Positions 37,378 through 40,546 of a stretch of DNA of 64,000 bases are shown piece by piece. The notes beneath the pieces were generated by a model that had not been told where the DNA came from, did not search any database, and saw nothing but the letters and a program-made list of their open reading frames with translations. The first letter of the stretch is position 1. Each line of letters starts with the position of its first letter. The stretch lies in assembly GCF_056746865.1 (NCBI RefSeq), contig NZ_CM163382.1. One strand, given 5' to 3'. Both the position numbers and the translations under genes were made by a program.

Positions 37378-37712
37378 GAAAACCTCCAGGTATAGTCAGA
37401 ATTTTTACTGCTACCAGCCACCAGGTGGCCAGTCAGAAGTTGTGTTACCCAGTAAGGAACGACTCTCTTTGTTCGAAAATCAAACAAAAAATGAGCAATA
37501 CCCGACATTTGGGCAGAAAATTGGATGATAGTTTACCAGATTTTGCGACCTTTGTGGTGAGTCGATGCCGGAAATGGGGAAAAAGAGATGCGCTTTAGTC
37601 TGAAATAGTTGACTTAGTCCCTTATTGGCGATGTGGTTTTTGTTTTGCCTGTCTGTCAGACGGCAGCAAAAAGCAACTTTCCATTTTTTACGCTGATTCA
37701 GAATTTAGCCAT

Positions 37713-37739
37713 AAAAAAACCCGCCGAAGCGGGTTTTTT
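37713..37739 (-). terminator. intrinsic terminator downstream of rpsI
   Basis: AAAAAAACCCGCCGAAGCGGGTTTTTT: GC hairpin with flanking A/T runs. Confidence 0.8.
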
Positions 37740-37771
37740 CGCAAATTGTTTTCTGCCGGAGCAGAAGCCAA

Positions 37772-38167
<396 letters not shown>

Positions 38168-38179
38168 CTATAATCCCGA

Positions 38180-38695
<516 letters not shown>

Positions 38696-38826
38696 CTACC
38701 CCTTCGAATAGCCTATGCCAGCACACAAAAAGTTTTGGGAAAAAAACTTTCTTGTAACGTGGGGTCGCAGGATTATAGAGAAGTCGGGGTCAAAGATCGA
38801 CCCCTTTTTGTGATTTGTGGCAGGTT

Positions 38827-39954
38827 TTAACCCGCTAAATGCTCGCGCTTCAGATACTCTTCGCTTTGCATCTCTTGCAGACGTGACAGGCAACGCTGGA
38901 ACTCAAATTTCAGCCGCTCGCCCTGATAAATGTCATATAGCGGCACTTCTGCACTCACCACTAATTTGACATGGCGCTCGTAAAACTCATCCACCAGCGC
39001 AATAAAGCGCCGCGCTTCGCTCTCCATCAACCGCGTCATAACTGGCACATCAAACAACATGACCGTGTGAAAGAGGCGTGAGAGCGCAATATAGTCATGC
39101 TGACTGCGGGCGTCGACGCACAGCGTAGTAAAAGAGACCGCCAGCGTCTGGTTCTCGACGCCCATTGTCGCCAATGGCCGATGGTTGATTTCTAACGTCG
39201 GTGAATTTTCTCGTTTCGCCCCCGCCAGCGCCAACCATAGTTTATCCATTTGCGCCCGGGTTTCATCGTTGAGGGGCGAAAGCCACAGATGCGCCTGAGT
39301 GAGTGTACGCAGTCGATAATCAACACCAGCGTCCACGTTCATTACATCACAATGCTGTTTAATGGCATCGATTGCAGGCAAAAAACGCGCACGTTGTAGG
39401 CCATTTCGATAAAGTTCGTCCGGCGGAATATTTGACGTCGCTACCAGGGTAATACCGCGGGCGAACAGGGCTTTCATCAGACCGCCAAGTAGCATGGCAT
39501 CGGTAATATCAGAAACAAAAAATTCGTCAAAACAGAGCACGTCAGTTTCTGCTTTAAAGCGATCGGCAATAATTTCCAGCGGATCGCTTTGGCCTTGTAA
39601 TTCGGTCAGCTCTTCGTGCACCCGCAGCATAAAACGGTGAAAGTGCAGACGCTGTTTCCGCTCTCCCGGCAGGCTTTGATAGAAAAGGTCCATCAGCCAG
39701 GTTTTCCCGCGTCCTACACCGCCCCACATATATAAGCCACGCACTGGCGTATGCTTTGTGTCTTCGCGTTTACCCCACAGCTTACCGACCCGCGCCATTA
39801 GCCCACTCGTCCTGGGGGCTGGAGGCGTGCTATTGATGAGTTCCTGATAAATAATTTCCAGGCGGCTGACGGCCTCTTTTTGAACGTCGTCGGGTTGATG
39901 GCTGCCTTCATTGAGCGCCTTCAGGTATTGCGATGTTGGGGTAACGCTTTGCAT
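38827..39954 (-). CDS. zapE: AFG1-like ATPase ZapE
   Basis: 375-aa ORF with Walker A GGVGRGKT. Confidence 0.9.
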   Translation of the reverse strand: MQSVTPTSQYLKALNEGSHQPDDVQKEAVSRLEIIYQELINSTPPAPRTSGLMARVGKLWGKREDTKHTPVRGLYMWGGVGRGKTWLMDLFYQSLPGERKQRLHFHRFMLRVHEELTELQGQSDPLEIIADRFKAETDVLCFDEFFVSDITDAMLLGGLMKALFARGITLVATSNIPPDELYRNGLQRARFLPAIDAIKQHCDVMNVDAGVDYRLRTLTQAHLWLSPLNDETRAQMDKLWLALAGAKRENSPTLEINHRPLATMGVENQTLAVSFTTLCVDARSQHDYIALSRLFHTVMLFDVPVMTRLMESEARRFIALVDEFYERHVKLVVSAEVPLYDIYQGERLKFEFQRCLSRLQEMQSEEYLKREHLAG

Positions 39955-40147
39955 GATCTTATTGTTATTCCTTGAATAATCGGTGCGCCGTTGTTCACGG
40001 TTGACGAAAAAAAGGCCGTTCTACACTACGCGATATGCAGTCGGGATTCCACTTCTGTGGAATTAACGGTTATAGTGGCATAATCAGCCGCAGGCATGGA
40101 GCCTGAAGCCAACACCCTACGGAAACAAAAGACAACGGGAGATGTTC

Positions 40148-40546
40148 ATGACCTGGGAATATGCGCTAATTGGGTTAGTCGTCGGCATCATTATTGGTGC
40201 TGTGGCCATGCGTTTTGGTAATCGTAAACTACGCCAGCAACAGGCGTTGCAGTACGAACTGGAAAAGAATAAAGCTGAACTGGACGAGTATCGCGAAGAG
40301 CTGGTTAGCCACTTTGCCCGCAGCGCGGAATTACTGGATACCATGGCGCACGACTATCGCCAGCTGTATCAGCACATGGCGAAAAGCTCCAGCAGCCTGC
40401 TGCCGGAACTGTCTGCTGAAGCAAACCCGTTCCGTAATCGTCTGGCAGAGTCTGAAGCCAGCAACGATCAGGCACCGGTGCAGATGCCTCGCGACTATTC
40501 TGAAGGCGCGTCCGGCCTGCTGCGTACTGGCGCGAAGCGCGACTAA
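40148..40546 (+). CDS. zapG: inner-membrane protein YhcB (ZapG)
   Basis: Start at second Met MTWEYALIGLVVGIIIGAVAMRF (132 aa); single N-terminal TM helix. Confidence 0.85.
   Translation: MTWEYALIGLVVGIIIGAVAMRFGNRKLRQQQALQYELEKNKAELDEYREELVSHFARSAELLDTMAHDYRQLYQHMAKSSSSLLPELSAEANPFRNRLAESEASNDQAPVQMPRDYSEGASGLLRTGAKRD

Follow-up and report, generated by a model that had tools for sequence, protein, structure and literature searches.

A terminator-like inverted repeat in the upstream half of the rplM-rpsI promoter of Escherichia coli

The zapE-rplM intergenic region

The window (the whole stretch of DNA analysed here, 64,000 nucleotides) is from Escherichia coli: the 341 bases around the motif under study match several strains, O157:H7 among them, at 100% identity and K-12 at 99.4%. 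The genes zapE, rplM and rpsI follow one another on the minus strand (Table 1). Window positions are converted to MG1655 coordinates by adding 3,340,043, and the RefSeq annotation of MG1655 has rplM at 3378223-3378651 and zapE at 3378870-3379997, both on the minus strand. Between positions 38690 and 38835 the sole difference between K-12 and the window is found at 38820 (-55 of the rplM promoter); since K-12 is thus identical across the motif, RNA-end data obtained in K-12 apply to the window. The motif is invariant in the sampled E. coli genomes and occurs at a median of one place per genome.

Within the 68 nt around the motif E. coli has one common polymorphism only, and this too is position 38820 (G in the window and in 2858 genomes, A in K-12), which falls within the 3' untranslated stretch of zapE; 2567 E. 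coli genomes carry one mismatch in this 68-nt segment.

On the plus strand, positions 38786-38809 read GGGGTC AAAGATC GACCCC TTTTT, i.e. two complementary arms around a loop with a T5 run directly behind them. The initial annotation had described this element as a hairpin with a T-run in the orientation of a plus-strand intrinsic terminator, and both the sequence and a consensus scan agree, the latter scoring it as plus-strand terminator-like (a 7-nt loop closed by 6 pairs, of which 5 are G-C). Equally borne out, by the open reading frames and the RefSeq annotation, is the accompanying remark that zapE, rplM and rpsI all lie on the minus strand with no plus-strand gene upstream. The same holds for the absence of a U-tract behind the stem on the minus strand, where the tail reads GACUUCUCUAUAAU. 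Fold energies on the plus strand were -10.0 to -11.4 kcal/mol; the 19-nt stem-loop alone has 6 bp and -10.0 kcal/mol (z -2.75). On the minus strand the same 19 nt fold into 8 bp, including one G-U pair, around a 3-nt loop (-11.3 kcal/mol, z -3.79).

How unusual such an element is depends on the rule applied. A loose scan rule returned 5 sites in a 2.5-kb region and is not discriminating, because 2.9 +/- 1.7 are expected. Under a strict rule (a perfect 6-bp stem with at least 5 G-C pairs, a loop of 3-8 nt and T5 immediately after) the two strands of the 64-kb window hold 7 sites, compared with 0.1 +/- 0.3 in 40 dinucleotide shuffles; with a count so far above the shuffles the motif is real and no random match. 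Four of the other six strict-rule sites (two loci, each on both strands, namely the rpsI and the degS/mdh terminators) coincide with published 3' ends. The motif is similar to canonical intrinsic terminators such as that of rpsI (37719-37734) in its G+C-rich perfect stem, its short loop and the five or more T directly after. In contrast, the rpsI and degS/mdh terminators stand at gene ends and on mapped 3' ends, whereas the motif has neither an upstream plus-strand gene or promoter nor a mapped 3' end, and its T-run and stem are not co-conserved. A bidirectional terminator is not indicated either, given the minus-strand tail and the lack of a convergent gene pair. A search of positions 37500-40200 against Rfam 15 at a permissive E-value gave no match at 38700-38830; the only matches, all below the gathering score, fell at the rpsI terminator.

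The rpsI end itself (about 37705-37775) apparently has two tandem 3' ends, one at MG1655 3377788 (Term-seq) and one at MG1655 3377750-3377753 (TRS, SMRT-Cappable-seq). Its second hairpin, at 37719-37734, carries T6 on both strands and therefore looks like a bidirectional terminator, and the sub-threshold Rfam matches there (RsmY, istR, rimP leader and others) are terminator look-alikes.

Table 1. Features of the zapE-rplM-rpsI region in window coordinates; promoter positions are relative to the rplM-rpsI transcription start site (TSS).
Feature	Position	Strand	Remarks
rpsI	37772-38164	-	
rplM	38180-38608	-	
Structured rplM 5' UTR, 157 nt	38609-38765	-	site of L13 autoregulation and of SrmB-controlled premature termination
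rplM-rpsI TSS	38765	-	MG1655 3378808; 157-nt 5' UTR according to PMC10931766
Discriminator CCTGCG, G+C-rich	38766-38771	-	
-10 hexamer TATAAT	38772-38777	-	-12 to -7; 7 nt upstream of the TSS; invariant in 90 distinct sequences
Hypothetical divergent -10 GATTAT	38771-38776	+	predicted start about 38782-38783; from the symmetry of TATAAT
17-bp spacer	38778-38794	-	-13 to -29; -26 to -21 form one stem arm
Inverted repeat GGGGTC-N7-GACCCC	38786-38804		spans -21 to -39 of the rplM promoter
Putative -35 hexamer TCGATC	38795-38800	-	from TSS and -10; 17-bp spacing; 3/6 matches to TTGACA
A5 tract (T5 on the plus strand)	38805-38809	-	-40 to -44; putative UP-type proximal subsite
zapE stop codon TAA	38827-38829	-	-62 to -64 of the rplM promoter; 22 nt upstream of the stem
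zapE	38827-39954	-	

The rplM-rpsI promoter and its conservation

The rplM-rpsI promoter, its 157-nt regulatory leader and read-through from zapE into rplM are already known. The length of the rplM 5' UTR (157 nt) and the negative stringent control of rplM-rpsI are given in the review PMC10931766, citing Aseev 2016. With rplM beginning at 38608 (38765 - 38608 = 157), the TSS is thus the A at 38765 on the minus strand, and the mRNA-start primers used by Iost and Jain (PMC6736130), who cloned the rplM 5' UTR with a primer beginning ACCCCACGTTACAAG, agree with this position. In SMRT-Cappable-seq an rplM-rpsI transcript on the reverse strand starts at 3378803 and ends at 3377753, backed by 573 reads in M9 and by 224 in rich medium. 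This TSS (window 38760) lies 5 nt downstream of 3378808, which may reflect read trimming or TSS clustering. Placed on this promoter, the motif is its segment from -21 to -44, a coincidence that the initial annotation had missed.

Upstream of the consensus -10 hexamer and at the usual distance stands TCGATC, which we take as the putative -35 hexamer on the basis of its position. It is nearly invariant (-35 to -33 are conserved at 0.99-1.00) yet goes uncalled by the consensus scan. TTGACC (-28 to -23) was considered as a -35 element as well and rejected, its spacer to TATAAT being only 10 bp. According to Rhodius et al. (PMC3326320), the proximal site of the RNA polymerase alpha C-terminal domain (alphaCTD) is centred near -43 and adjoins the -35 element; it prefers A- or T-tracts with a narrow minor groove, 3 nt being the minimum effective tract. 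The A5 run at -44 to -40 overlaps this centre and supplies a tract of at least 3 nt near -43, and the rplM A-tract is accordingly most likely a UP-type subsite, which alphaCTD would contact. In its A-tract upstream of the putative weak -35, its consensus -10 and its G+C-rich discriminator, the rplM promoter shares features with UP promoters of the rrnB P1 type (stringently controlled rRNA and r-protein promoters), and negative stringent control is reported for rplM-rpsI in PMC10931766. It differs from the rrnB P1 type in that no more than a proximal-type tract is evident (-57 to -47 are unconserved) and in a 17-bp spacer with an unusually invariant stretch at -20 to -13.

Two further observations concern this part of the promoter. 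A GATC (Dam methylation) site lies at 38795-38798 inside TCGATC; among 90 distinct orthologous promoters, 73% have the C at -30 that this site requires and the others a T (GATT). From Escherichia to Vibrio the spacer block GACTTCTC (38778-38785, -13 to -20) hardly varies, an unusual feature in a sigma-70 spacer. It combines with -39 to -33 (within 38798-38807) into an imperfect inverted repeat centred on -27, AGRRGTCG-N11-CGACTTCT, which pairs perfectly over 11 bp in Rosenbergiella and forms a stem of 6 bp in Pantoea (loci L014, L022 and L024).

For a comparison across taxa, one genome per species with L13 was scanned, resulting in 80 loci. In about 60 of the 80, spread over Enterobacterales, Vibrionales and Alteromonadales, rplM immediately follows zapE. 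The consensus of 53 loci anchored on the -10 hexamer, from -62 to +10, is aaa.........aat...aAAaA.ggGtcGATcTTTg.....gaCTTCTCTATAATCtTGCGACCCcaCGTT. A metagenome scan anchored on the invariant block from -18 to +12 added 120 loci and brought the total to 90 distinct sequences from -50 to -7. Among these 90 distinct promoters the fraction of the major base is 0.66-0.89 at -44 to -40 (A), 0.70-0.92 at -39 to -36 (G), about 1.0 at -35 to -27, 0.77 at -26, 0.32-0.49 at -25 to -22 (the least conserved stretch of the promoter), 0.70 at -21 and about 1.0 at -20 to -7. It follows from these fractions that the T-run and one arm of the motif coincide with conserved promoter blocks, and that the other arm falls where conservation is poor, which is the case nowhere else in the promoter. 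Conservation reaches as far as Vibrio for the A-run, for the -35 block and for -20 to -7.

Stem and T-run do not travel together. The perfect stem is restricted to the Escherichia, Pseudescherichia, Citrobacter and Kluyvera types and some Enterobacter, and the GGGGTC arm is kept elsewhere opposite sequences that are not complementary to it (GCGGGC, ATACGC, GAAGTC, ATTTTT). T5 accompanies a perfect stem in just 3 out of 11 distinct sequences; the rest read TTTAT, TAAAT, TATTT or TTTTC on the plus strand. In the Enterobacter cloacae group both stem and T-run are degraded. The A-tract variants found in relatives (ATAAA, ATTTA, AAATA, AAATT) all keep a tract of at least 3 nt, which fits a UP-type subsite and not the requirement for a U-tract.

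Variants of the stem are single transitions. The commonest, GACCCT and GACCTC, leave a G-U pair on the minus strand and an A-C mismatch on the plus strand; AACCCC does the reverse. RNAalifold returned no consensus structure for 38 Enterobacterales promoters on either strand, and within the E. coli-type stem no compensatory change was found. Covariation suggested by double-sided changes was rejected, as these come from distant lineages in which other pairs are broken or the register is different. Over the 90 distinct sequences 65% of the cells are paired in the sense direction (column-shuffle 59.6%) and 58% in the antisense direction (54.0%), a small excess that is what shared ancestry produces.

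Mapped RNA ends and alternative readings

Published RNA ends were taken from the complete curated Term-seq tables of Adams et al. 2021, which cover three growth conditions and apply thresholds, and from TRS. In the neighbourhood Term-seq lists 3377788 (-, rpsI), 3378418 (-), 3378595 (-), 3378723 (-), 3380163 (+) and 3380623 (+, yhcB), and TRS lists 3377750 (-), 3378723 (-) and 3380625 (+). Neither set has a 3' end at MG1655 33788xx on either strand, although RNAs of about 27 nt or rare RNAs would escape, and the Adams 2021 tables report no Rho-termination region at the motif. The same tables do list the rpsI terminator, the end within the rplM 5' UTR and the yhcB/zapG end. In Supplementary Data 3 of the SMRT-Cappable-seq study the RegulonDB unit b3232 (zapE) is extended to b3232|b3231|b3230, i.e. 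to zapE-rplM-rpsI, which means that capped full-length transcripts pass through the motif into rplM-rpsI. The number of transcriptional contexts recorded there for zapE is 2 in M9 and 1 in rich medium.

The 3' end at 38680 on the minus strand (MG1655 3378723), among the strongest in the Term-seq tables, falls within the rplM 5' UTR at a distance of 72 nt from the ATG and matches the SrmB-controlled premature termination site of Iost and Jain 2019 (PMC6736130).

The main rival to a promoter-only reading places the function of the stem in the zapE RNA. Here the motif would be a leaky 3' hairpin on the minus strand, devoid of a U-tract and located 22 nt past the zapE stop, while the A-tract would still be a promoter element. 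Such a hairpin would have one of two effects: it would stop a fraction of the polymerases ahead of the rplM promoter, or, once the RNA has been cleaved downstream or terminated by Rho, it would hold up 3'-to-5' exonucleases and thereby define and stabilise the zapE mRNA 3' end. The minus-strand stem is the slightly stronger of the two by length, energy and z-score, the commonest stem variants preserve pairing on this strand through G-U where the plus strand suffers an A-C mismatch, and pairing across lineages is higher in the sense than in the antisense direction. Other minus-strand hairpins exist at the same place in Rosenbergiella (11 bp), in Pantoea and in loci L012 and L033, and the occurrence of zapE in two transcriptional contexts in M9 points in the same direction. 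Moreover, hairpins appear to be distributed in a complementary manner. A strong hairpin between the zapE stop and -46 is present in none of 15 lineages with a strong promoter hairpin as compared to 12 of 21 lineages lacking one (Fisher p = 2.6e-4), and with spacers of at least 30 nt only the counts are 0 of 5 versus 12 of 16 (p = 0.006), although these tests ignore phylogeny and are confounded by spacer length, and several of the post-zapE hairpins are REP-like insertions. This distribution hints at selection for some minus-strand hairpin.

A number of results speak against this scenario. Neither Term-seq (Adams 2021) nor TRS has a minus-strand 3' end at the stem, the zapE unit of SMRT-Cappable-seq reaches rplM-rpsI so that polymerase evidently reads through, and the stem is followed by no U-tract on this strand. 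Nine lineages have no strong hairpin anywhere from zapE to -10, and the E. coli-type stem has neither compensatory changes nor a consensus structure. The suggestion of the initial annotation that the element could be a stability hairpin at the zapE mRNA 3' end therefore receives indirect support from the complementary distribution of hairpins and none from the mapped ends, with zapE transcripts reading through. Altogether we regard a role in the zapE RNA as possible but rather unlikely. With known 3' hairpins that have no U-tract (REP/BIME-type elements, trimmed ends of Rho-terminated RNAs) the motif has in common a stable hairpin soon after a stop codon, and REP-like hairpins occupy the same interval in related species. 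Unlike REP/BIME elements it is single-copy and hence does not belong to a repeat family; it also sits within a promoter, and the 3'-end maps have nothing at the base of the stem.

The REP-like elements of related species, CCCTCTCCC...GGGAGAGGG, fold with -19 to -24 kcal/mol and sit between the zapE stop and the rplM promoter (L008, L017, L018, L047). Their carriers are Enterobacter, Pluralibacter and related genomes, in which the promoter-embedded stem is degraded.

Much less probable is a true intrinsic terminator on the plus strand, which would end a divergent RNA of about 26-28 nt, or an antisense RNA of other origin, and in this way shield zapE from antisense transcription. The E. coli plus-strand motif does have every sequence feature of an intrinsic terminator. 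A source for such an RNA can be imagined in the -10 hexamer itself: read on the opposite strand TATAAT becomes GATTAT, whose second and sixth bases are the key A and T, and the start would fall 3-4 nt before the stem. In a 2020 preprint Warman and coworkers reported that symmetric -10 elements often drive divergent TSSs, most commonly arranged 18 bp apart, and that 19% of E. coli TSSs are divergent. The rplM -10 resembles these bidirectional promoters (Warman, Forrest, Wade and Grainger) in its symmetry and in the 18 bp between the TSS and the predicted divergent start; it differs from them in that the plus-strand hexamer begins with G, that a plus-strand -35 or extended -10 is lacking (the would-be -35 is TTTCTT) and that the divergent start is a prediction only. 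RNAs this short would presumably be lost from standard Term-seq and RNA-seq libraries.

The idea of the initial annotation that the motif terminates an unannotated plus-strand RNA is nevertheless not supported by the data. No plus-strand 3' end was found at about 38805-38810 (MG1655 3378848-3378853), where such an RNA should end, or elsewhere at the motif in Term-seq (Adams 2021) or TRS; a consensus scan of 37500-38786 detected no promoter-like site upstream on the plus strand. In addition, 8 of the 11 distinct sequences that keep a perfect stem lack an intact T5, stem and T-run are degraded in the Enterobacter cloacae group, and the common stem variants put an A-C mismatch at the base of the stem right beside the U-tract. 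We consider a genuine plus-strand terminator very unlikely, and the special case in which the rplM promoter of E. coli and its nearest relatives fires divergently and the hairpin with T5 ends the RNA of about 26-28 nt, as the promoter's own insulator for zapE, more unlikely still.

Just as improbable as this special case is that the 6-N7-6 inverted repeat serves as operator for a dimeric DNA-binding regulator of the rplM promoter. It is a palindrome of the usual operator size lying over the -35, and both the unusual invariance of -20 to -13 and the second imperfect repeat centred on -27 could be read in this way. On the other hand, conservation within the promoter is lowest in one half-site (-25 to -22), the perfect repeat is confined to one clade, and the accounts of rplM-rpsI control in PMC6736130 and PMC10931766 name the stringent response, L13 autoregulation and SrmB and no such regulator. 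A 32-codon plus-strand ORF at 38715-38813 (MPAHKKFWEKNFLVTWGRRIIEKSGSKIDPFL), which ends at the motif with its stop just past the T-run and whose frame and ATG are kept in Escherichia, Citrobacter, Kluyvera and some Enterobacter, was rejected as a small gene terminated by the hairpin (a next to negligible possibility): it has no Shine-Dalgarno sequence and no plus-strand promoter, its ATG is missing from Siccibacter, Enterobacter BIGb0383 and every more distant taxon, and its peptide is absent among the entries listed in the O157:H7 ribosome-profiling small-ORF supplements and from a collection of 15 billion proteins. As the ORF is antisense to the rplM promoter and 5' UTR, which are conserved, its frame would be open in any case and is probably kept only because the underlying DNA is conserved; no sign of expression came to light in these collections.

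A promoter seen from the opposite strand

With moderate confidence we favour the reading that the motif represents the sigma-70 promoter of rplM-rpsI from -21 to -44, its upstream half, and that the resemblance to a terminator is a by-product. In this reading the plus-strand T5 is the minus-strand A5 run at -40 to -44, placed at the proximal subsite of a UP element, where it presumably lets the alphaCTD of RNA polymerase compensate for the weak -35 TCGATC. The GGGGTC arm (-39 to -34) comprises the conserved G-rich junction and the start of the putative -35 hexamer, the loop holds the remainder of that hexamer and the invariant TTT, and the GACCCC arm (-26 to -21) falls where the 17-bp spacer is under the least constraint. 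This stretch of the spacer would then happen to be complementary to the conserved arm in Escherichia, Citrobacter, Kluyvera and some Enterobacter, and the terminator-like repeat would result. The promoter accounts for both the T-run and one arm, so that no RNA needs to be invoked.

Several points weigh against a mere by-product. A perfect G+C-rich 6-bp stem with T5 directly behind it is very rare by chance, as the strict-rule counts show, and the chance that a free 6-mer is complementary to the conserved arm would be about 1/4096 per register. Lineages differ in the hairpin formed at the same place, and promoter and post-zapE hairpins are distributed in the complementary manner described above. 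We infer that the stem itself has no independent function; if it does have one, this is more likely to be exerted on the minus strand.

For genome scans the case is a caution: an UP-type A-tract together with a G-rich -35 region, read on the opposite strand, can pass even strict rules for intrinsic terminators. As a promoter can mimic a terminator in this way, terminator predictions should be checked against promoter maps of the other strand. The biological weight of the finding is small. Should the stem act on the zapE RNA or on a short divergent RNA after all, the locus would illustrate, on a small scale, how the same bases can belong to a promoter and to a terminator-like element at once.
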